Source: Lentisphaeria bacterium
Lineage (GTDB): Bacteria; Verrucomicrobiota; Lentisphaeria; JABSQK01; JAWLHB01
Length of the DNA: 64,000 nucleotides
NCBI GenBank assembly: GCA_041690595.1
Contig: JAWLHB010000034.1
Coordinates: forward strand, 1 to 64,000
Reading direction: 5' to 3'
The notes under the pieces are model-generated. The model was given only the letters and a program-made list of their open reading frames with translations. It was not told the origin of the DNA and made no database searches. Each line of letters begins with the position of its first letter. Within the stretch, counting starts at the first letter, position 1. This document shows positions 25,975 through 38,469 of the stretch, one piece after another. The position numbers and the translations under genes were made by a program.

Positions 25975-26988
25975 TCATAATGTCCGGCCCACTGCCCGCA
26001 CGACAGCGTCCAGTTCCCGCATCAAGGTGGCGAAGCCGTCCGGCCACAGCGATTGCTTGCCGTCCGACATCGCCTTGGTTGGATCGTTGTGGACTTCTAC
26101 CAGCACACCGTCCGCCCCGCATGCCGCCGCGGCTCGTGCCATGGGCGAGACGAATTCCCGGACCCCGGTTCCATGCGAAGGATCCACCAGCACCGGCAGA
26201 TACGTATGCTGCTTGAGGTACGGGATCGCGTTCAGATCCAGCGTGTTGCGCGTCGCCGTTTCGAAGGTCCGGATGCCCCGTTCACAGAGTATGACATTCG
26301 GATTGCCCTCCGAGACGATATACTCGGCAGCCATCAGGAGATCTTCTACCGTCGCCGCCATGCCCCGCTTGAGGATCACCGGCTTGCGGCTCTTCCCCAG
26401 CCGCGTCAGCAGTCGAAAGTTCTGCATGTTGCGCGCCCCTACCTGGAAAGCATCGGCGTAAGCCTCCACGCTCTCTACATCCGCCACCTCCACCACTTCC
26501 GTGATCGCCGGCAGACCCACCTCACGGGAAACGTCCCGGAGGATGCGCAGCCCCTCCAGTCCCAATCCCTGGAAGCTGTACGGACTCGTTCGCGGCTTGA
26601 AGGCGCCGCCCCGCAATCCGCGTGCTCCCGACGCCTTGATCGCCAGCGCCGTCGCCTCCATCTGCTCGCGCGATTCGATGGCGCACGGGCCCGCAATGAC
26701 CACGAAGCGGTTCCCCCCAATCGCCACATCGCCGATCGATACGACGGCATCGCTTGGGTGGAACTCCCGGCTCACCACTTTATAAGGTGTCAGGATAGGG
26801 GTGATGCTCTCCACCTCCGGGTGATTCTCCAGGTGGAGCGTTCCCAATATCCGCTCATCCCCGATCGCGCCCAATACTGTTCGTTCCGTGCCCGGCAGGT
26901 ACAGCGGCTGAAGACCGGCCGCCGCGATCTGCTGCTGGATCTCCTCGGCGATCGCCGGAGTTGCTGTCGGCTTGAGGATGATAATCAT
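25975..26988 (-). CDS. aroF: DAHP synthase, type I-beta with N-terminal regulatory domain
   Basis: MIIILK, IAGPCAIES, GAFKPRTSPYSFQG, GARNMQN, LKRG, CERGIRTFE, DPSHGTG and EVH. Confidence 0.95.
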   Translation of the reverse strand: MIIILKPTATPAIAEEIQQQIAAAGLQPLYLPGTERTVLGAIGDERILGTLHLENHPEVESITPILTPYKVVSREFHPSDAVVSIGDVAIGGNRFVVIAGPCAIESREQMEATALAIKASGARGLRGGAFKPRTSPYSFQGLGLEGLRILRDVSREVGLPAITEVVEVADVESVEAYADAFQVGARNMQNFRLLTRLGKSRKPVILKRGMAATVEDLLMAAEYIVSEGNPNVILCERGIRTFETATRNTLDLNAIPYLKQHTYLPVLVDPSHGTGVREFVSPMARAAAACGADGVLVEVHNDPTKAMSDGKQSLWPDGFATLMRELDAVVRAVGRTL

Positions 26989-28334
26989 AGCGCCAACAGC
27001 TTTTGTTCGAGGTCGAGTGTGGCAGAGACCAACTCATCATGGATGGAGGCAAACGGCAGCTGGCCAAGCATCATCGGGACCATGTCCGCCGCGTAGCCGC
27101 CACGGGCAGCCACAGCCCGATCCGGCGCATAGCCGCTCAGATCGTTGGTCAGCCCCATTACCAGCGGCACCTTGCTCGTCGCCCCTGCCAGAATATCCCG
27201 CTTGATCGCCTGCATCACCTCAAATGGCGAGGCCAGCAGTGCCAGATCGCCGATACGAAAGGCCTGCAAAAGCGTCGTGGGTTCCAGATTCTCCCCGGCA
27301 TCCAGCCGCGCCAGCAGCCGCCGCAGGGCAACCAGATAGACCGTATGAATGCGCACCTCCCGCGAGCTGTCATCCGCATCGGCCGCATGCACAATGGTTT
27401 CCGATTCGGCCAGACGCGCCATCAGGTCGGCCCGCACCAGCGGACGGCGCGAGAAGGCCACTTCGCTGGTCAGGGCGGCAAGCGGCGTCTCCGTCAGTGG
27501 CTCTGCCGTGGCCAGCCCCCGGCGCACGGCCCGGGCGAAGCGCGCGGCAAGGATATCCAGGGCCAGCAGGGCCTCCTGTTCCGGCTTGTGAACCACACAG
27601 GAGTTCACATCCCCCTGAGCGCCCTGCAGAAAGATGGCCACGGTCCCCGGCTGCTCGCGCTCCAGCAGGTTCATCGCCACGCCGCAGTAATCGCCATGAA
27701 TGTAGCGCGTGGTGGCGCAGCAGACGACGGGATGGCAACTGAAATAGGTGAAGTGTCCCAGGCACGCGCCGGTATCGGCGTGATCGAAACGCACGACATG
27801 GCAGGTCGTATCCGTCAGCTCCGCCTTCTCGGGACGCCACGCTTCATCGAGCACCTTTTCCAGGGGCGGCGCATCCTCATCGTACTCCCGATTGAGTGCC
27901 ATCCCCTCGCACGGCGTCTCGGCATGCTTCAACACCGCCGGCTGCAAGGCCTCGTGCGCCGCGCGGGCCACCTGGCGCAGTTTTGCCGGCAGCGTCTCCA
28001 GGTAAGGCGTATCCGGTACACCCCAGCCGATCAGTTGATCTGTAGTTGCCGGGCCACTGTGTGTGTGCGTGCAACTGATCATGACGGCATCTTCGGCCAG
28101 CCCCAGAGCCACCGCGATCTCCGCCCGCACCGCGTCCGTCATCGACCGGGGTAGCCCGACCAGATCGCAGCTGATCAGCAGCAGCTCTGTCTCGCCCGAG
28201 CGCATGGCAAGCGCGCGTGCCTGGAGGGGATCCCGCACGCCGATCGAGTGACGATTGATGTAGGCGCCGAACCCGCACAATTCCACGCCCACGCGTGGGG
28301 TGATCGCCTGTCGTGCAAAACCCACTTCCAGCAT
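26985..28334 (-). CDS. Neutral/alkaline ceramidase-like Zn amidohydrolase
   Basis: VGFARQAITP, DPLQARAL, CTHTHSGP, CHP and LQGAQGD; start chosen at MLEV with an AGGAG RBS. Confidence 0.75.
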   Translation of the reverse strand: MLEVGFARQAITPRVGVELCGFGAYINRHSIGVRDPLQARALAMRSGETELLLISCDLVGLPRSMTDAVRAEIAVALGLAEDAVMISCTHTHSGPATTDQLIGWGVPDTPYLETLPAKLRQVARAAHEALQPAVLKHAETPCEGMALNREYDEDAPPLEKVLDEAWRPEKAELTDTTCHVVRFDHADTGACLGHFTYFSCHPVVCCATTRYIHGDYCGVAMNLLEREQPGTVAIFLQGAQGDVNSCVVHKPEQEALLALDILAARFARAVRRGLATAEPLTETPLAALTSEVAFSRRPLVRADLMARLAESETIVHAADADDSSREVRIHTVYLVALRRLLARLDAGENLEPTTLLQAFRIGDLALLASPFEVMQAIKRDILAGATSKVPLVMGLTNDLSGYAPDRAVAARGGYAADMVPMMLGQLPFASIHDELVSATLDLEQKLLAL

Positions 28335-28490
28335 TGTCGGCTCTCCTGCCTGTGATGCTCGTTTGCTTTGATGACCGTCGCTCAATATACCGGCTCGCCT
28401 GAACATCGCCACCGTCATTCTTCCCGTCCTGCCGATTCTTCCCTTTTCATTTGCTCAGAACAAGCGGTGACGCCTTCTTGGCGTTTTCTA

Positions 28491-28844: not shown

Positions 28845-29600
28845 ATGAGTAACATCATCCGCACAATATTCGCTCTCATGATTGTTGGATTCGTCGCCAC
28901 CGCGCAGGAAGAAGACTACGCCGTAGCGATGGACTTCCAACTCGACAACGCCAGCCAGTACGTGTGGCGCGGTATCGTCATCAACGACGAGCAGGTCATG
29001 CAGCCCAGCGTCACCGCCTCCGTTGGCGGCTTCAGCCTCAATGTCTGGGGTAACTTCGACATGACCGACACCGGCCTTGCCGGCAATGACGAGTTCTCCG
29101 AAGTTGACTACACCCTCGCCTACAACGGCGAAGTTGATGCCTTCAACTTCGGCATCGGCGCGGTCTACTACGACTACATCGGCGGAAATCCCCGTGAAGA
29201 GACCGCGGAAGTCTTCGGCAGCATCGGCTTTGATGTCATGCTGAACCCGACTCTCACTGTCTATTATGACTTTGATGAAGCGGACGGCTTCTACGGCACC
29301 CTCGGCGTTGGTCATTCCATTCCCTTGAATGATGAAGAGACCTTCACCTTCGACCTGGCCGCCAAGGTCGCTTACGCCGATGGCGATTACAACGAGTACT
29401 ACTATGGCGTCGATGATCACGGCTTCGTAGACGTTGTTGGTTCCGTTGGCCTGGCGTACGCCATCACCGAGAACATCGGTGTCGGCATCTCCGTCAGCTA
29501 CAGCGAGCTGCTCGACAACGACATCGAAGACAACGCTGACTTCGCCTACGGCGACAGCGATGCCTTCTGGACCACCTGGTCCGTGAGCGTTGGCTTCTAA
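28845..29600 (+). CDS. Outer-membrane beta-barrel protein (TorF/TIGR02001-like)
   Basis: Signal peptide; SQYVWRG, QPS, EVDYTLAY; amphipathic strands and C-terminal Phe. Confidence 0.8.
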   Translation: MSNIIRTIFALMIVGFVATAQEEDYAVAMDFQLDNASQYVWRGIVINDEQVMQPSVTASVGGFSLNVWGNFDMTDTGLAGNDEFSEVDYTLAYNGEVDAFNFGIGAVYYDYIGGNPREETAEVFGSIGFDVMLNPTLTVYYDFDEADGFYGTLGVGHSIPLNDEETFTFDLAAKVAYADGDYNEYYYGVDDHGFVDVVGSVGLAYAITENIGVGISVSYSELLDNDIEDNADFAYGDSDAFWTTWSVSVGF

Positions 29601-29625: not shown

Positions 29626-29666
29626 GGCCGGTGGCTGTCGCGAAAGCGATGGCCACCGGCCTTTTT
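29626..29666 (+). terminator. Intrinsic terminator
   Basis: 16-bp stem GGCCGGTGGCTGTCGC-GAAA-GCGATGGCCACCGGCC followed by TTTTT. Confidence 0.9.
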
Positions 29667-29725: not shown

Positions 29726-32485
29726 TCAGCGAGGCTGCATGTCGCGCATCAGGACGCCTGCACCCGCAATCGGTTTGCAGACCAGAATGGCGGGTGGTCG
29801 CCCCAGCGGCTCATAATAATGCTGGTTGAGTGCGGCGAAAAGCGCATCGACCGCTTCCCGATGCGCCAGCACCATCATGCAGCCCCCGAGCCCCGCGCCG
29901 GCCAATTGTGCTCCCACGACCCCTTCGGTGCGCATGGAGATATCCACCATACGGTCGATAGGTGGCAACGAGCAGTGATACGAGCCCGGCTGCCACTGCA
30001 GCTGCGCACGTACCACCCGATCCGGATCTCCGCTCTCCAGATCATCCATCAGCGCCAGCAGATGGCCGTTCGACGTCGGCGCCAGGTAGGGGCGCTCCGT
30101 GAAGTCGTCGGTATGGCTTACAACACGATCGCCGTTGTGGGAGATCGCCATCAATCGACCGATTTCGACGATTCGTTGCGCCTTCAGGTAATCGGCGTAC
30201 AGGCGTGCGCGCTCGCATTCCGCCAAGCCGAAGAGCACGACCCCTCGCACCGGATAGAGCCCATCCGGTGGCGCTTTGTGCGTGGCGAAATAGCCCTGCA
30301 GATCCACCTCCGGCAGCAACTCTTCCAATTCCTGGCGGGTCGCCTGCTCGGGCAGGTGCAGCAGGATCCGGTAGATCCAGCTCAACGGCACTCTCAGGTT
30401 ACGCACGTTGACATCGCGCAGATAGCTTATCTGTGGCGCGAATTGCGGGAACGACTTGCGGATCAGCTGGAAACCAATCCGGTAGCAGCTGATACGGTGA
30501 TTGAAGAGGTCTTTGGCGTTGGCGCTCTTCTGCGCACGGATGCCCGAGTCGCAAACCACCATTCGGTAATCCTCGGGGAAGTCGACGCTCTCCTCCACGG
30601 CAAAATCGAAGAAGGAAACCTTGATCACCTTTCCCTTCTGGCCCAGTTTCACCGCCGCGTGATCCGCTGCTCCACCGCGTGTCCCGACGAACCATTCTCC
30701 TTCGCCGCAAAGATCGACCACCTGTGATGGAAAGGTCAGCAGGTCGTTCACCGCGATAGTCGCATCCGCTGCTCCCACCACCAGGCTCGACGAGGAGCTG
30801 AGCCCTGCCGCCATCGGCACGTTACCCGCTACCAGCACGTCCATGCCGCGCAGCTTCTGCTGGTTGAACTTCTTCTGCAGGCGCAGCACCGAGGCCGTGA
30901 TATACTGCGACCAGTCGCCACCATAGGTATGCAGTAGCTTGCTCAGCGTTTCGCTGTTGACCAGCGACAGCCAGTCTTCCCACGGCAGATCCTGCACCAA
31001 CTCGCCAATCGAGAAATGACGGTGACCAAAGCGCTCTTCATCGATGTGGTGAAGGTGGATCCGATCGTCTGTCCGGGCGTGGACCACCATCAGTGTCTCG
31101 TAGCCGATCGTCATCAGGTTGCAGTTCCCCCCCTGATGGTCGATATGCCGGCTCAGCACGTTGATGCGGCCGGGTGACCGGACCAACAGCACGCGATTGC
31201 TCGGATCCTGTCGCGCCGCCGCGGCCTGGAGGATGTCGCTGAAGGCCGCCAGCCGCTCTTCAAGTACATCCGATGCTGCACCATAGACCGCGGTCAATTC
31301 ATCCCAGATATCGGGTGCACCGCGTCGTCCCACCTTTGCCATGGCGGCGAAAGCCGCCTGCCATTCCGCCAAGGGCCGGTACCATGGAGAAGCAGACAGG
31401 TCCTCATCCGGCGTGCGGCTCGCCGAGCGGGCGCTAAGATAATTCTCCACCTCCAGAAGCTCCGCCGGATCGTTGAAGCCGAGCAGGTACCGGGGATTCT
31501 CCACCCGCATGGCGCTGCACTGAAACTTCAGCTTGCCGTGGGCATCGCGCGCCTGCGACAGGATAGTGACGATATCGGAAAGGTATTCCTCGGCCTGCGC
31601 ATTGTCGCGGCCCAGATTCGCCAAGGCGTGGCGCAGTGCACCTGCCTTGATCACGTAGACCGAATTGTTCAGCAGCGGCGCCGCATCCACCTCGGCCGGA
31701 CTCAGCACCAGATCACTGCCGTCGGCCTGGCGGAATCGGAAATGCGTCATCTTCTCTGGCACGAGCCGCTGCAACGCTTCCAGGGGCAACTCGCCTTCCC
31801 GGTCGGCCAGAAGGCGCCATAGATCGCCGAAGGCTGTGGCAAACTTGCTGTCGTCAACCTGTTTGCGTCCCCCGCGGGTAAAGTGCTCGCGCAGCACCTC
31901 CAGCACCCTCTCGCGGTTCGCCGTCCCATTGCCGTTGAGCGTTCCCAAGAGTTCGGCGAGAGCGGCATAGGCGGCACGCTGTCGGATATCGGCATCTTCC
32001 ACGATGGCCAGCAGGGCGCCGTCCGTACCCATGATGATGCGGCCCTGGGTCGAGCCATCCCGCCGGGGCGTCACCGGCAGTGCCAGATCGCAGTCGCGGC
32101 TGTAGAAGAGGTCAAAAAGCTGTTCGAGGACCGACCGTTCGATGATGCGATCGCCCGCGACCACCAGCACGTCTTCGTTGTCACCCACCGTCTCCAGCGC
32201 CTGCATGGCGGTCCGGGTGGCATGCGCGGTCCCTTGTTGCCGTGCCTGGTAAACGTAGCTGACATTGCTGAAGGCGGCTCCCACCGTCTCCACCACCTGA
32301 CCGGCCATCGCTCCCACCACGATCACGTGATGGCGAATGCCGCAGTCATTGTAGATCTGCAGCGCATGATGAATGGCCGGCACCCCATTGAGGGGAAAAC
32401 AGACCTTGTGCATGGTCATCGACCGCATGCGGGTCCCTTTTCCGGCCGCGAGAATGATGCTGAAGGTCGGGGCGCGTGTCGGCAT
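29726..32485 (-). CDS. Bifunctional sugar-1-phosphate nucleotidyltransferase (GlmU-N-like) / GHMP sugar kinase
   Basis: N-half ILAAGKGTRM..K, QQGTAHA, NAQAEEYLSD; C-half PGRINVLSRHIDHQGG, PMAAGLSSSS and GAGLGGC. Confidence 0.85.
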   Translation of the reverse strand: MPTRAPTFSIILAAGKGTRMRSMTMHKVCFPLNGVPAIHHALQIYNDCGIRHHVIVVGAMAGQVVETVGAAFSNVSYVYQARQQGTAHATRTAMQALETVGDNEDVLVVAGDRIIERSVLEQLFDLFYSRDCDLALPVTPRRDGSTQGRIIMGTDGALLAIVEDADIRQRAAYAALAELLGTLNGNGTANRERVLEVLREHFTRGGRKQVDDSKFATAFGDLWRLLADREGELPLEALQRLVPEKMTHFRFRQADGSDLVLSPAEVDAAPLLNNSVYVIKAGALRHALANLGRDNAQAEEYLSDIVTILSQARDAHGKLKFQCSAMRVENPRYLLGFNDPAELLEVENYLSARSASRTPDEDLSASPWYRPLAEWQAAFAAMAKVGRRGAPDIWDELTAVYGAASDVLEERLAAFSDILQAAAARQDPSNRVLLVRSPGRINVLSRHIDHQGGNCNLMTIGYETLMVVHARTDDRIHLHHIDEERFGHRHFSIGELVQDLPWEDWLSLVNSETLSKLLHTYGGDWSQYITASVLRLQKKFNQQKLRGMDVLVAGNVPMAAGLSSSSSLVVGAADATIAVNDLLTFPSQVVDLCGEGEWFVGTRGGAADHAAVKLGQKGKVIKVSFFDFAVEESVDFPEDYRMVVCDSGIRAQKSANAKDLFNHRISCYRIGFQLIRKSFPQFAPQISYLRDVNVRNLRVPLSWIYRILLHLPEQATRQELEELLPEVDLQGYFATHKAPPDGLYPVRGVVLFGLAECERARLYADYLKAQRIVEIGRLMAISHNGDRVVSHTDDFTERPYLAPTSNGHLLALMDDLESGDPDRVVRAQLQWQPGSYHCSLPPIDRMVDISMRTEGVVGAQLAGAGLGGCMMVLAHREAVDALFAALNQHYYEPLGRPPAILVCKPIAGAGVLMRDMQPR

Positions 32486-32533: not shown

Positions 32534-33223
32534 TCACTGCTGCGTTACTATAGCCTCAATGCCCTTGCGAAAGGCCGTGGCGCCGCCATTCGCCGGGTGC
32601 CGCACCTCGTGATACTCGTCCACGATCCGGCTCAATTGCAGCGCGGCGACCTTGCCGACCGCGATCAACGTGCAGCCCTCGAATACCTGGAGAAACGTCA
32701 CCAGCGCGCCAAAACCGAAGGCCAACTCCGCATCCGTCGGCCGACGATTGCTCAGGTAGCCTTTCTGAGGCTGGTAGGGGTGCCACGCAAAGGTATTCCA
32801 GATGACGAAATGACGAGGGTCAATACCCAACTGCAGCATGTTGCCCCAGGCAATCGTGGCTGTCGGCTCCGTGAAGCCGTCAGCGCGAAATTCCGGGCGG
32901 CTGGTGCGCTCCGGCGCCACGCCGGTGAAAACGTCCTCGGGGGAGATCCCCTTGCAGCGCAGATGGCCGAGCAGCATGCGCTCCGAGGTCATCGCCATGC
33001 CGCTGAAGTGCCCACCCTGATAGCCCAGCGCCTCGCCGAGCAACACGTAGCGCGCAGTGCGCCGGCGCTCGTTCAGGTAGTGCCGCAGCTGGCGCCGGCG
33101 TATCTCGGGTGCCCGCTCGTGCAGGTCATGGACTTCATCAACCTGAAACCAGGGATTGAAGACGCCGGGGGTGTCGGGCGCGCGTTCGAGCAGCGCGAAT
33201 AGATTGGCGATGGTCTGTTGCAT
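32534..33223 (-). CDS. Uracil-DNA glycosylase superfamily protein (SMUG-like)
   Basis: GEALGYQGGHFSG..TSE, EPTAT, WNxFxWHP, NRRP and HPANGG; start chosen at MQQT. Confidence 0.8.
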   Translation of the reverse strand: MQQTIANLFALLERAPDTPGVFNPWFQVDEVHDLHERAPEIRRRQLRHYLNERRRTARYVLLGEALGYQGGHFSGMAMTSERMLLGHLRCKGISPEDVFTGVAPERTSRPEFRADGFTEPTATIAWGNMLQLGIDPRHFVIWNTFAWHPYQPQKGYLSNRRPTDAELAFGFGALVTFLQVFEGCTLIAVGKVAALQLSRIVDEYHEVRHPANGGATAFRKGIEAIVTQQ

Positions 33224-33374
33224 GCCGCTAACCATACACGCCGCAGCCGCTCTGGCAAGAGCGCCATAGACTCGCACCACGCACTTTCCCGCTCTTCTGC
33301 TTGACTTGCCTGCGCAACACGTGCTAATTATCCACTCAACACCCAATCGCCAATCTCCAGATTCAGAGACTCTC

Positions 33375-34574
33375 ATGAGCCAGCCGATGAGCTATCGCCG
33401 CTTTGGCCGCACCGGCCTTCAGATGCCTGTCCTCACCTGCGGCGGCATGCGTTACCAACACGCCTGGAAGGATACCCCGGATGCGGAAATCCCGCACGAC
33501 AATCAGGCCAACCTGGAAGCCACCATTCTCAAGGCAATCGACAACGGTATCAACCACATCGAGACAGCCCGGGGCTACGGCAGCAGCGAGTATCAGCTCG
33601 GCAAGATCCTGCCCAACCTCGATCGCGACAGCCTCATCGTGCAGACCAAGGTGCCGCCAAAAGAAACCGGCGCCGCCTTTCGCGAGACCTTTGACTTTTC
33701 CATGCAGAACCTCCGCCTCGATCATGTCGAGCTGCTCGGCATTCATGGTGTCAACAACGACGAGTGCCTCGATCTGGCTCTTGCCAAGGGGGGATCGCTC
33801 GATGCTGCCCGTCAGCTTCAGCGCGAAGGGCGCGTTCGTCACATCGGCTTCTCCACCCATGGGCCGCTCAAGACGATTCTGCGGGCCATCGAGACGGGGG
33901 AGTTCGACTACGTCAACCTTCACTGGTACTATGTCGAGCAGACCAACTGGGCGGCCATCGAGGCTGCCACCCGCCACGATATGGGCGTCTTCATCATCAG
34001 CCCGAATGACAAGGGTGGAAAGCTTTACGAGCCACCCGCGACGCTGGTTGACCTCTGCCGGCCTCTCACCCCCATGGGCTTCAACGACCTCTTCTGCCTC
34101 TCGCATCCACAGGTGCATACCCTGAGCATCGGCGCCGCCAAGCCCCAGGATTTCGATGCACACCTCGAGATCCTCCCTCTGGTCTCCCGCGCCCGCGACG
34201 TCATCGATCCTATTCTTCGGCGGCTCGACCGCGCCTTCGTCGATACCTGGGGACGCTTCATGGTCGACAACTGGTGGAAGGGACTGCCGCAGTGGGATGC
34301 CGCTCCCGGCGGCGTCAACATCTATCAGATTCTTCGACTGCTCCTGCATGCCCGCGCCCTCGACATGGTCGAGTACGGCAAGATGCGCTACAACCTGCTG
34401 GGCAGCGGAGGCCACTGGTTTCCCGGCAACAAGATCGACCAGATGGACTGGCAGCAGCTTCAGCGTAGCGTCGCCGCGTCTCCCATTGCCGATCTGATTC
34501 CGAGTCTGTTGCGAGAAGCGGAAGAGCTGCTTGGCGGCGAAGAAGTCAAGCGTCTGAGCCAATCCGCCAACTGA
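33375..34574 (+). CDS. Aldo/keto reductase family protein
   Basis: YRRFGRTGL, ETARGYG, QTK, GFSTHG and SPNDKGG. Confidence 0.88.
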   Translation: MSQPMSYRRFGRTGLQMPVLTCGGMRYQHAWKDTPDAEIPHDNQANLEATILKAIDNGINHIETARGYGSSEYQLGKILPNLDRDSLIVQTKVPPKETGAAFRETFDFSMQNLRLDHVELLGIHGVNNDECLDLALAKGGSLDAARQLQREGRVRHIGFSTHGPLKTILRAIETGEFDYVNLHWYYVEQTNWAAIEAATRHDMGVFIISPNDKGGKLYEPPATLVDLCRPLTPMGFNDLFCLSHPQVHTLSIGAAKPQDFDAHLEILPLVSRARDVIDPILRRLDRAFVDTWGRFMVDNWWKGLPQWDAAPGGVNIYQILRLLLHARALDMVEYGKMRYNLLGSGGHWFPGNKIDQMDWQQLQRSVAASPIADLIPSLLREAEELLGGEEVKRLSQSAN

Positions 34575-35466: not shown

Positions 35467-38400
35467 ATGAAGCCAGTCACCGTTCTGCTTCCACTCCTCC
35501 TGCTTCTTCTTGCGACAGCTCAGGTCACTGCCGAGGAGGTGGTTTCGGAAATCCCCGATCTCCTGCTCATCGACGACTTCGAGAGCGGCATCGACCGCTG
35601 GCACAATGACGACACCGGCACCCTCGAAGCGGTCGATGACGGCAAGGGCGGAAAGGCCATGCGCTGGACCGCCACCGACGATGGCATCGGCCACATCATC
35701 CTCAAGAAACTGGACCGCGCCGAGATCGACTTCAGCCAGTATCAGCTGCTCAGCTTCCGCATCAAGCTGGAGGGCAAGAAGGCCTGGAACGTCAACCCCG
35801 TCGTGCATCAGTATCCTGCCGCCTACGGCTATCGCGCGCTCTACTACAGCATCGATACCCTGATGCCCTTTGGCGAGTGGTTCGACTACACCCAGGATCT
35901 GCGCCGATGGGAAAATGCCTGGCCCGACACCTTCAGCACCGAAGCGCAGGAGTTTCAGTTCGAAATCGCCCAGCTCGCCGGCGCCGAAGCCACCCGCGTC
36001 TACATCGACGATATCCGCCTGCTCAAGAACCCGCTCGGCATCGAGCGCTCGTACGATGGCCGCCATGGCATCCTTCCCGACGGCACGCAGGTCACCCATT
36101 TCGACATTCGCCTTCGCAACCAGTCCGATGCGCCCATTCGGCTGGCCGCGGCGCTGCGCGAAGGTTCCCTGACGCATTTCACCGCCAGCATCACGATGCC
36201 CGAAACTCTCCTCCCCGGCGAAAGTGCCTCGGCCCAGGTGCAGGTCAAAGCCCCTCTGGAACTGCCTGCCGACCTTCCCAAGTGGTATGGAGAGACAGCC
36301 ATCGTCGGCTTTTCTGTCCTCGACACGCCAGGGCTGACCCTCTTCGTAGAGCTGACCGCCGGCACCCTCCCGGAAGATCGCCAGCATCCATGCATCCTCG
36401 CCACGCCCGAACACGTCAAACGCTGGCAGGCACAGTGGAGCAATCCAGAGACACGCAAGCAGATGGATCGCGCCTTCGTCACCTTCGTCAACAAGGCGGA
36501 GGAGGCCATGGTCCGGGAGCAGAGCTATCCGGTCCTCGCGCATGTCGGCATCACCCGCTGTCCGAAAGATGATGGCCCGTTGGCGGAGATCATCGTCGAA
36601 AGCTCACCGTATCACACCTATCAGTGCCCTCAGTGCGGCAAGGCCTACAGTGGTCCGCTCTACGACGCCGGCATGCTCCGTTGGTCGGGAAAACACCAGC
36701 TCAATGCCGCTGACGCCCGAAATCTGGGCCTCGCCGCCGCCGTCACCGGCCGTCGGGACTTCGCCAACGCGGCGGCGCGCATCCTCCGCACCTATGTGGA
36801 TGTCTATCCCAAGCTGCCTGTCATGGCGCTCGAATCCGGCAGTCCTGCCTACAGTCATACCTCCGGAGCCGCCCGCATTGGCAGCACCTACATGCGTGAA
36901 CGCGGCTGGTTGACCGATCTCGCCATTGCGCTCGACTTCATTCTTCCCATGGGCGTGATGAGCGAGGAAGATCTGGACGCGGTGCGCCGTGAGGTATTTG
37001 CCCCCTCCGCCCACCTCATGATGGATCACAAGGTCGGCGCGATGAATCTGCAGTGGATGATTGCGTCCGCCGGGCTCTTTGCCGGCCTCGCCAGCGACCA
37101 TCCCACCTTGGTCGCCCGCTCGATGTACGATCCCCACGGTGTACAGAATCTGCTGGCGGTCGGCTACCTGGACGATGGAAACTGGTGGGAGAACCCCTCG
37201 TACCAGAATGTCGCCAACGGGATTGCCTATCCGGTGCTCACCACCTGCCTGCGCAACGGCATCATCGAGTGGGAGCCTCGCCTCAATCGCATCTTCTCCG
37301 CGCAATTCCGCACCTATGGCCCCGACGGCCGCGGACCCACTCTCGGCACCGGCGGCCCCGGCGGATGGAACTATGCGGTCAACCTGCTGCACTCGCTTGC
37401 CGATGTAATCGACGATCCCGAGCTGGCTTGGGCGCCGCATCATCTGCCCATGTGGCGCGCGACTTCGGGCGGCGGGCAACCGTACGACAGCTATCTCTGG
37501 GCGCTCACCTGGCAGGCTCCGCCCATGCTGTCGAAAGAGGAGACGCGCTCGCCTATCCCCACCACCACCACCCATCTGGAAGATTATGGCGGCCTGGCCC
37601 TCCGGGTGCCCGACGCCCGAAACTACTGCTATTTCTACTACGGGCGCGAACTCGTTCATGGCCACCGGAACAAGCTCTCCCTCAACGCCTTTGCCAAAGG
37701 TGAGTGGTTCATGCGCAACGTCGCCGGTGGCTATGGCGACAACTTCAAGAACTTCCTCGAAACCATCGCCAGCAGCAACACAGTTATGGTCGATGGCACG
37801 GATGCCGACTGGGATACGGGTGAGCTGCTCTTCCACGCTACCCATGATGGTATCGAACTTGCCAGCGCGCGCGAGGTCGGCGCCTGGAAGGATGTCGAGC
37901 ATGAACGCAGCATCGTCTTTACCGGCGGGCCGCTGGTTGTCATCGATCGGCTTCTCGGCGACAAGCCCCATCGTTATGACTGGCTCTATCATGCCAACCT
38001 GACCAAGCTCGAACTCGATGGCGAGGGGCTGGCCACGCATCAGGAGCCGCTGGGCGAGACGTCCCTCTATGAATCGCTTCTTCCCGACCGCCGTTTCGGT
38101 ACTCCCGCCACCGCCCACTTCACGCGTCCAAGTGGCAGCGGGCTGCGAATGGCCTTCCTGCCCCGCGGCGAGCTTTTCGCCTTCAAGGCTCTCGGCAAGT
38201 CTCCCGGACTGCTCTGGCGCCAGGATGGTGACGCGGTCGGCTTTGCCGCCGTCTACTGGCCGTACGCGAAGGATGAATCCGGCGACGTCGCTATCGAAGC
38301 CATTCCGGTTCAGAATGCGGAAGGGCAAGAGGTCGATCTGCGCAGCGCGCAGGCCGTCAGGGTCACGACTCCCGATGGCGCCTGGCTCGTTCTGGTCAAT

Positions 38401-38469
38401 TATACGGGCAAGCCTCTCTCGGCCGCCTCCCTTTCCGGTGCGGACCGGATCCAGATCCAGAAGCTGTAG
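35467..38469 (+). CDS. Secreted heparinase II/III-like polysaccharide lyase with N-terminal CBM-like domain
   Basis: Signal peptide; IDDFE...YIDDIRL jelly-roll; DGNWWE..YQ, HGHRNKLS and NTVMVDG. Confidence 0.75.
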   Translation: MKPVTVLLPLLLLLLATAQVTAEEVVSEIPDLLLIDDFESGIDRWHNDDTGTLEAVDDGKGGKAMRWTATDDGIGHIILKKLDRAEIDFSQYQLLSFRIKLEGKKAWNVNPVVHQYPAAYGYRALYYSIDTLMPFGEWFDYTQDLRRWENAWPDTFSTEAQEFQFEIAQLAGAEATRVYIDDIRLLKNPLGIERSYDGRHGILPDGTQVTHFDIRLRNQSDAPIRLAAALREGSLTHFTASITMPETLLPGESASAQVQVKAPLELPADLPKWYGETAIVGFSVLDTPGLTLFVELTAGTLPEDRQHPCILATPEHVKRWQAQWSNPETRKQMDRAFVTFVNKAEEAMVREQSYPVLAHVGITRCPKDDGPLAEIIVESSPYHTYQCPQCGKAYSGPLYDAGMLRWSGKHQLNAADARNLGLAAAVTGRRDFANAAARILRTYVDVYPKLPVMALESGSPAYSHTSGAARIGSTYMRERGWLTDLAIALDFILPMGVMSEEDLDAVRREVFAPSAHLMMDHKVGAMNLQWMIASAGLFAGLASDHPTLVARSMYDPHGVQNLLAVGYLDDGNWWENPSYQNVANGIAYPVLTTCLRNGIIEWEPRLNRIFSAQFRTYGPDGRGPTLGTGGPGGWNYAVNLLHSLADVIDDPELAWAPHHLPMWRATSGGGQPYDSYLWALTWQAPPMLSKEETRSPIPTTTTHLEDYGGLALRVPDARNYCYFYYGRELVHGHRNKLSLNAFAKGEWFMRNVAGGYGDNFKNFLETIASSNTVMVDGTDADWDTGELLFHATHDGIELASAREVGAWKDVEHERSIVFTGGPLVVIDRLLGDKPHRYDWLYHANLTKLELDGEGLATHQEPLGETSLYESLLPDRRFGTPATAHFTRPSGSGLRMAFLPRGELFAFKALGKSPGLLWRQDGDAVGFAAVYWPYAKDESGDVAIEAIPVQNAEGQEVDLRSAQAVRVTTPDGAWLVLVNYTGKPLSAASLSGADRIQIQKL

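Follow-up and report, generated by a model that had tools for sequence, protein, structure and literature searches.

N-acetylgalactosamine (GalNAc) is salvaged by the kinase GALK2 acting with a separate pyrophosphorylase, and fusions of a sugar kinase with a pyrophosphorylase are also known as a kind. The L-fucokinase/GDP-L-fucose pyrophosphorylase of Bacteroides fragilis (FKP, 949 amino acids (aa)) is described as an N-terminal pyrophosphorylase followed by a helical linker and a C-terminal GHMP kinase (PMC11982464). Such fusions are workhorses of one-pot nucleotide-sugar synthesis. In zebrafish, DrGKUP (619 aa) is described as a glucuronokinase/UDP-glucuronic acid pyrophosphorylase (PMC3938481) and, on that description, the concept of one-enzyme uronate salvage is not new. 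AmgK-MurU is described as a Pseudomonas salvage route for N-acetylmuramic acid and N-acetylglucosamine (GlcNAc) (PMC5371407). Here we analysed a 64,000-nucleotide stretch of a Lentisphaeria bacterium genome (contig JAWLHB010000034.1, hereafter the window), in which a single gene joins a GlmU-type nucleotidyltransferase to a galactokinase (GalK)/GalNAc-kinase-type GHMP kinase. Most likely, this gene encodes a real, conserved and uncharacterised bifunctional salvage enzyme. We favour, with modest confidence, a one-polypeptide cytoplasmic enzyme that would convert a sugar into its 1-phosphate and then into the UDP-sugar, the sugar being most likely of the N-acetylhexosamine or hexosamine type and possibly acidic. 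As homology suggests, the C-terminal kinase would first transfer phosphate from ATP to the anomeric O1 of a free sugar of hexose type, with D608 and R440 as the presumed equivalents of the catalytic Asp/Arg pair of galactokinase. The most likely sugar is a hexose with a 2-acetamido or 2-amino group (GalNAc/GlcNAc type). The N-terminal domain would then combine the sugar-1-phosphate with UTP to yield the UDP-sugar and pyrophosphate.

The fusion corresponds to one intact open reading frame (ORF) on the minus strand. It spans exactly 29726..32485, the interval in which an earlier note on this DNA had placed a fused nucleotidyltransferase and kinase, and the plus-strand reading of the same interval contains many stops. 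The top 120 homologues were all around 900 aa long, 54-66% identical over their full length and carried domains identical in kind, which places the observation far beyond chance. A scan of one genome per species, based on pattern-matched stretches, confirmed the fusion in at least 437 of 600 such stretches. The 80 loci kept came from Lentisphaerota, Planctomycetota, Chloroflexota, Acidobacteriota, Aminicenantes, Hydrogenedentota, Spirochaetota, Nitrospirota and one deltaproteobacterial metagenome-assembled genome (MAG). When the kinase half was searched against the full library, a threshold of E<=1e-30 retrieved 380 clusters (50% identity) and one of E<=1e-10 retrieved 2474. The clusters included stand-alone kinases of 500-560 aa, a Thermoproteota form of 1129 aa and a Promethearchaeota form of 726 aa, and the clade defined at E<=1e-30 reaches into both of these phyla. 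Our literature searches on the bacterial fusion family retrieved no study, and we found no characterised member of this large family or of the kinase clade around it.

The N-terminal half was assigned as GlmU-like by several approaches. Pfam located NTP_transf_3/NTP_transferase at residues 9-163, GlmU models led the NCBIfam matches and the alignment with Haemophilus influenzae GlmU (2v0h) paired query residues 6-168 with 5-159 and 272-312 with 168-208. Structure comparison (VIA-align) recovered Mycobacterium tuberculosis GlmU 2qkx (Z 29.9, root-mean-square deviation 1.7 A, 255 aligned residues), followed by the GlmU structures 1fwy and 1hm0 at Z 27.4 and 26.6, respectively; among other nucleotidyltransferases the highest value was Z 23.9. 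The fusion shares with GlmU the uridylyltransferase fold and the motifs LAAGKGTRM, QxGTAHA, GD, the E-strand, N and NAQxEYYLxD. Among 70 family ORFs, K27, Q80 and G85 were present in 70/70, R19 in 69/70, and D112, E163, N273 and N295 in 64/70 each. We take the roles of these residues to be those of their GlmU counterparts; Q80 and G85 align with residues that presumably read uracil, and hence UTP. As had been proposed, an acetyltransferase domain is lacking: no hexapeptide or left-handed beta-helix (LbH) Pfam family was found at E<=0.01 in the 919-aa protein, and in the AlphaFold2 (AF2) model residues 340-425 form helices, followed by the kinase, where GlmU has its LbH domain. The full-length model, built from a 61-sequence alignment (A2), reached a predicted local distance difference test score (pLDDT) of 91.0 and a predicted template modelling score of 0.86, and a second model of residues 1-430 (pLDDT 93.3) agreed with it. 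GlmU also differs in having 8 residues where the fusion has around 103. The helical insertion of roughly 90 aa noted earlier is therefore real and somewhat longer than estimated; it is mostly helical in both models (helices 164-181, 191-202, 212-228 and 235-241) and includes four short strands too. After the insertion and the linker, the full-length model shows a complete kinase fold.

The kinase half, which carries GRINVLSRHIDHQGG, matched the Pfam galactokinase signature GalKase_gal_bdg PF10509 (32.2 bits, cut-off 23.1, residues 433-468), GHMP_kinases_N PF00288 (42.8 bits, residues 528-615) and GHMP_kinases_C PF08544 (34.9 bits, residues 814-891). The catalytic motifs were intact: the kinase retains R440 (GRxN), the signature HxD, the P-loop GLSSSS, GAGLGG and D608. 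GNVPMAAGLSSSS and GAGLGGC were invariant or almost so in the fusion-family alignment. When compared with GalNAc kinase and with the galactokinase of the same genome, D608 fell on the Asp of GxMDQ and R440 on the Arg of GRxN, both being invariant. Translation located the three motifs on which the earlier description relied, namely LAAGKGTRM, NAQxEEYLSD and the kinase sugar-binding motif, and the position of the latter, previously given as about 31100-31176, was refined to nucleotides 31106-31171. By sequence, the nearest solved kinase was human GalNAc kinase 2a2c (PDB search, E 1.1e-26), which was also the nearest fold to the whole model (Foldseek E 2.4e-23, TM(target) 0.80). Galactokinases of human, yeast, archaeal and lactococcal origin ranked below this structure, the order being alike in the sequence and fold searches. 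Human GALK2 (2a2c/2a2d) and the fusion kinase have in common the long GalK-type fold, the HxD signature, the P-loop, the catalytic Asp and the Phe in xFNxR. They are only around 21% identical, two Glu of GALK2 are Arg in the fusion, and the fusion kinase is joined to its pyrophosphorylase.

The layout seen by Pfam and AF2 confirmed the domain order for which FKP had been cited as the precedent: pyrophosphorylase, helical linker and GHMP kinase, with a free sugar being converted to a nucleoside diphosphate (NDP)-sugar on one chain in FKP as described. The building blocks are different. The N-terminal half of FKP is described as containing a beta-helix and using GTP, whereas that of the fusion is GlmU-like, has no beta-helix in the AF2 models and keeps the residues aligned with the uridine-binding Gln and Gly of GlmU. 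Similarly, the FKP kinase is a fucokinase and the fusion kinase is of the GalK/GalNAc-kinase type; no Fucokinase Pfam family appeared at E<=0.01 and the FKP model was not among the best 25 of 41 NCBIfam matches. Because the domains differ in origin from those of FKP, the gene looks like the product of an independent fusion event, although its protein most likely acts in the FKP manner, with the kinase step preceding the pyrophosphorylase step. The AmgK-MurU pair resembles the proposed route in that an anomeric kinase and a uridylyltransferase bypass de novo UDP-amino-sugar synthesis. AmgK, however, is a non-GHMP kinase, and on the MurU model the fusion scored 34 bits against a cut-off of 250.

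The kinase has Arg in place of Glu in its sugar-binding signature. The replacement reported earlier was found in 61/61 fusion proteins of alignment A2, a count free of circularity because the alignment came from an HMMER search. R446 was also present in 75/75 motif-bearing family ORFs, a circular count since the pattern itself had served to collect part of these loci. Among the 150 best 50%-identity representatives of the wider kinase clade, the signature pattern was found in 95; position 446 is Arg in 82 of them, Met in 7, Lys and Val in 2 each, and Ser and Thr in 1 each, Glu being absent throughout. The second Arg, R603, was even more conserved (122/123 kinase-clade representatives) and lies two positions ahead of the Gly that contacts the sugar in the GxxGGxxD segment. 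The canonical galactokinase of the same genome has Asn at both positions (GNHTDY, GANTGLLDQ). We take the signature Glu to be the residue that contacts galactose O6; a literature search on galactokinase residue roles retrieved no text. Because both positions are Glu in GalNAc kinase and invariant Arg here, the sugar may bear an acidic group. A possible but rather unlikely extension is that R446 and R603 mark an anomeric kinase of new specificity, directed at an anionic sugar, either a 2-acetamido hexuronic acid (GlcNAcA/GalNAcA), a candidate hinted at by the TviC-like epimerase gene beside the fusion in locus L020, or a plain uronate. We know of no described direct bacterial salvage route to UDP-(N-acetyl)hexuronic acids, and our literature searches found none.

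The same two Arg residues could be taken to support the proposal of the earlier note, namely a galacturonokinase-like enzyme that converts free galacturonate or glucuronate into the UDP-uronate, and the zebrafish fusion provides a precedent for such chemistry (PMC3938481). As described there, DrGKUP also combines an N-terminal nucleotidyltransferase with a C-terminal GHMP anomeric kinase in a one-enzyme uronate salvage; on the same description, its kinase is of the plant glucuronokinase (GlcAK) type, from an unrelated clade, and the protein is 300 residues shorter. Plant GlcAK is described as sharing almost no identity with galacturonokinase (GalAK) (PMC2823444). Conversion of a free sugar to an NDP-sugar by one protein is the natural reading of two halves whose catalytic motifs are both intact, and this part of the proposal stands; we regard the uronate as its substrate as unlikely. 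The uronate proposal depends on a putative plant GalAK motif and one residue. According to the earlier note, the plant enzyme (Yang et al. 2009) shares HIDHQGG...MTI and lacks the signature Glu; it is reportedly stand-alone and has Ala, not Arg, at the signature Glu position. The motif strings HIDHQGG and IDHQGG were not found in the literature texts searched or in a tomato GHMP supplement. Moreover, the nearest relatives of the two halves are GalNAc kinase and GlmU, and 13 of the 95 clade representatives have another residue (Met, Lys, Val, Ser or Thr) in place of R446. The genome catabolises uronates by UxaC. It also encodes two NDP-sugar dehydrogenases, so UDP-uronates can be made de novo. 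An anticorrelation between the fusion and UDP-sugar 6-dehydrogenase was considered and discarded as uninformative: the dehydrogenase was above cut-off in 37 of 41 close relatives, including three of the four that bear the fusion.

Genes adjacent to the fusion were then compared across loci. Most of the 98 same-strand adjacent ORFs were unrelated housekeeping genes, and no solid uronate gene was found among them, the single 'KduI' match being IolB. Amino-sugar genes occurred sporadically. In L020, a TviC/WbpP-like epimerase (291 bits) and WecB (288 bits, above cut-off) lie directly downstream of the fusion; a NagA-like deacetylase (213 bits) adjoins it in L058, a NagC-like ROK protein in L011 and a PIG-L/BshB1-like deacetylase in L049. 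Weaker hints were a SIS isomerase, an APH kinase and a NAGPA-family protein. The stand-alone paralogues pointed in a similar direction: in 4 of 11 Planctomycetota paralogue loci, an LbH protein of around 240-315 aa is encoded directly upstream of the kinase on the same strand (L108:7639-10275, L106:5606-8109, L121:2-2540 and L127:428-3071). The LbH proteins of L108 and L106 matched best the acetyltransferase half of archaeal-type GlmU (99 and 157 bits, respectively), while those of L121 and L127, typed by a Pfam Hexapep match only, are 38-61% identical to them. The four linked kinases are 33-70% identical to each other and represent at least three lineages (33-49% identical); those of L108, L121 and L127 have Met at position 446. 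This association ties the kinase clade, by paralogy only, to a putative hexosamine-1-phosphate chemistry. Because of the sporadic NagA, WecB and TviC/WbpP-like neighbours and the LbH-linked paralogues, we prefer amino sugars to plain uronates as the substrate. In L108, an IMPase-family phosphatase precedes the LbH-kinase pair.

A salvage enzyme for neutral hexoses or pentoses (galactose, glucose, arabinose, xylose or fucose), in which the Arg residues merely reshape the pocket, appears distinctly improbable, even though GalK-family enzymes are promiscuous and a Solitalea GalK/uridyltransferase pair is described as making UDP-xylose (PMC11267548). The arabinokinase-like PDB entry 9ulx ('AbGHMP'), for which no paper was found, also lacks the Glu (GGIADYSG) and fits such a view. 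However, a canonical galactokinase scoring 301.7 bits (cut-off 226.65) is encoded elsewhere in the genome, on contig C8 (locus L089), with the motif GRLEVLGNHTDYNEG and Asn for the signature Glu, directly downstream of the glucuronate isomerase gene uxaC and upstream of ffh; therefore, the fusion kinase is not an ordinary GalK. In addition, its nucleotidyltransferase is GlmU-like and not GalU/USP-like, and a second fusion in the same genome, P0240, is a better neutral-sugar candidate. P0240 (648 aa; contig C8, L092:1486-3432 (+), outside the window) has the opposite domain order, the GHMP kinase (GRVCLFGEHSDWAG) being N-terminal to a GalU-type UTP-glucose-1-phosphate uridylyltransferase (183 bits; PDB 3juj, 2.9e-37), and adjoins a 2-hydroxyacid dehydrogenase gene. 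An HddA/HddC-like kinase-transferase pair was also present in the genome.

It could also be argued that the N-terminal domain is the housekeeping GlcNAc-1-phosphate uridylyltransferase, replacing a missing half of GlmU, and that the kinase is an add-on. No GlmU exceeded the TIGR01173 cut-off in the genome or in any of the 41 relatives, and the 919-aa fusion was the best GlmU-model match in the genome. Furthermore, glmM (577.7 bits) overlaps the gene of a stand-alone 312-aa LbH protein (contig C2, L113:6859-9107 (-)) whose match to archaeal-type GlmU (249 bits) is confined to the acetyltransferase half, so GlmU appears, from these matches, to be split in the source lineage, with no uridylyltransferase in this pair. 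We nevertheless consider a housekeeping role highly improbable: the fusion was found in only 4 of the 41 relatives and 7 of 201 genomes of the source phylum, one Chloroflexota genome has a canonical GlmU (523.7 bits) in addition to the fusion, and other small nucleotidyltransferases are present in the source genome. As a general role of the family, GlmU replacement was rejected, since most relatives lack the fusion and the Chloroflexota genome has both. The amino-sugar salvage enzyme that we favour would thus not be the cell's housekeeping route to UDP-GlcNAc.

Several observations weigh against an amino-sugar salvage enzyme. Substrate and nucleotide specificity are deduced, the family members being known from sequence only, and the name 'N-acetylgalactosamine kinase' borne by homologues is an automatic annotation. 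The kinase reached 119.6 bits on the canonical galactokinase model TIGR00131, below its cut-off of 226.65. The ungapped HMMER alignment to GalNAc kinase turned GEHIDY into SRHIDH and GTEGGGMDQ into GTRGGAADH, so that both Glu positions are Arg (R446 and R603), which argues against plain neutral GalNAc as the substrate. In the other half, scores were far under the GlmU cut-offs (124.1 bits for the best NCBIfam GlmU model, cut-off 611, and 119.1 bits for TIGR01173, cut-off 366.85). The Tyr of LYGD in GlmU is Ala in the fusion (VAGD), and therefore the N-terminal sugar pocket also differs from that of GlmU. The genomic context was also thin. A conserved operon was sought by all-against-all clustering of the ORFs of the 80 related loci and the window, and it was rejected: of 77 loci, no more than 5 shared any given neighbour family within a distance of 5 kb. 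Among the 98 ORFs scanned, an amino-sugar-related same-strand neighbour turned up for only 4-7 of the other 76 loci. Finally, the LbH association belongs to the stand-alone paralogues and not to the fusion; position 446 in the 11 paralogues is Met in 9 and Arg in one (L128), the motif pattern being unmatched in the remaining one (L106).

If correct, the amino-sugar salvage proposal would add an unrecognised route from a scavenged sugar straight to a UDP-sugar for cell-wall or surface glycans; the bacteria concerned would be polysaccharide degraders of the Lentisphaerota, Planctomycetota, Chloroflexota and Acidobacteriota. The fusion could also supply a new biocatalyst, being a natural and widespread combination of GlmU-type and GalK-type domains whose pocket is unusual.

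The fusion varied in both architecture and distribution. Among the 70 family ORFs of at least 750 aa, the insertion measured 87-110 aa in 54 and 33-34 aa in 10, and it was missing in 6. These 6 insertion-less forms (L032, L036, L037, L039, L040 and L042, all from Lentisphaerota MAGs, around 773-809 aa) had degenerate nucleotidyltransferase motifs (LAAGLSRRM, D112 replaced by H and no NAQ) and an intact kinase; their N-terminal half is probably inactive. In a FastTree phylogeny of the 70 kinase halves, which was computed with no outgroup and from which six shorter fragments were dropped, they formed one nested Lentisphaerota MAG clade with a support of 100. The window copy fell outside the main Lentisphaerota clade and grouped with two copies from Pirellulales MAGs (support 90), a position that would be compatible with gene transfer or with bin contamination. 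The fusion was present in 13 of 80 genomes of the source class, which is that of Victivallis vadensis; homologues occur in cultured bacteria such as V. vadensis and Lentisphaerota strain zth2 (loci L016 and L017). A member of the kinase clade was present in 21 of 401 Planctomycetota genomes. Altogether, the fusion gene is probably an accessory, patchily distributed trait. The relative G008 encodes a stand-alone homologue (P0241, L093:1-1431 (-), 34% identical) in an ORF that is cut short by the end of the contig. It keeps GRINLMGRHVDHQGG, whereas the family GGAADHAAV reads GGACAPAAM, which removes the catalytic Asp, and it may be a pseudo-kinase.

Table 1. Positions in the window of the fusion gene, its domains and motifs, and the elements flanking it.
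Feature	Position	Strand	Basis
Whole fusion ORF, 919 aa + stop	29726..32485	minus	Full-length homologues 54-66% identical
GlmU-type sugar-1-phosphate uridylyltransferase domain without LbH acetyltransferase, residues 1-339	31469..32485	minus	Pfam/NCBIfam, GlmU alignment, structure comparison
LAAGKGTRM nucleotide/pyrophosphate-binding loop, residues 12-20	32426..32452	minus	Translation
Insertion of ~103 aa, mostly helical, residues 169-271, between the equivalents of the GlmU E154-strand and N169	31673..31981	minus	2v0h alignment and AF2
NAQAEEYLSD, residues 295-304, aligned with GlmU NAQGEYYLTD	31574..31603	minus	Translation, 2v0h alignment
Helical linker, residues 340-425 (helices 340-355, 372-389, 391-401, 405-425)	31211..31468	minus	AF2 models
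GalK/GalNAc-kinase-type GHMP kinase domain, residues 426-919	29729..31210	minus	Pfam, NCBIfam, PDB search, Foldseek
Sugar-binding signature GRINVLSRHIDHQGGNCNLMTI, residues 439-460; R440 equivalent to the catalytic Arg, R446 in place of the signature Glu	31106..31171	minus	Alignments, translation
GHMP motif II, ATP phosphate-binding loop GNVPMAAGLSSSS, residues 554-566	30788..30826	minus	Pfam, alignment
CGEGEWFVGTRGGAADHAAV, residues 593-612; D608 at the GalK/GalNAc-kinase catalytic Asp position, R603 at the Glu of GalNAc kinase GTEGGGMDQ	30650..30709	minus	Alignments
GHMP motif III GAGLGGC, residues 863-869	29879..29899	minus	Alignment, translation
G+C-rich 16-bp hairpin, terminator-like, between the fusion 3' end and the convergent MipA-like gene	29626..29661		Consensus scan only
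MipA-like gene, convergent, downstream of the fusion past the strong hairpin	28845-29600	plus	MipA Pfam match
280-aa ORF, 48 bp upstream of the fusion, same strand	32534-33376	minus	ORF call

Within the window, the ORF immediately upstream of the fusion matched no Pfam family at E<=1e-4; by eye, its GEALGYQGGHFSGMAMTSE stretch recalls what we take to be family-4 uracil-DNA glycosylase-like proteins. Beyond the MipA-like gene, a ceramidase-like protein (Ceramidase_alk N-terminal domain, 1.5e-20) is encoded at 26985-28418 (-), and 4 loci have a homologue of it no further than 5 kb from the fusion, for instance directly upstream in L048. On the other side, an aldo/keto reductase-like ORF lies at 33306-34574 (+), and 35467-38469 (+) encodes a protein of 1000 aa whose C-terminal domain is heparinase II/III-like (2.3e-07).

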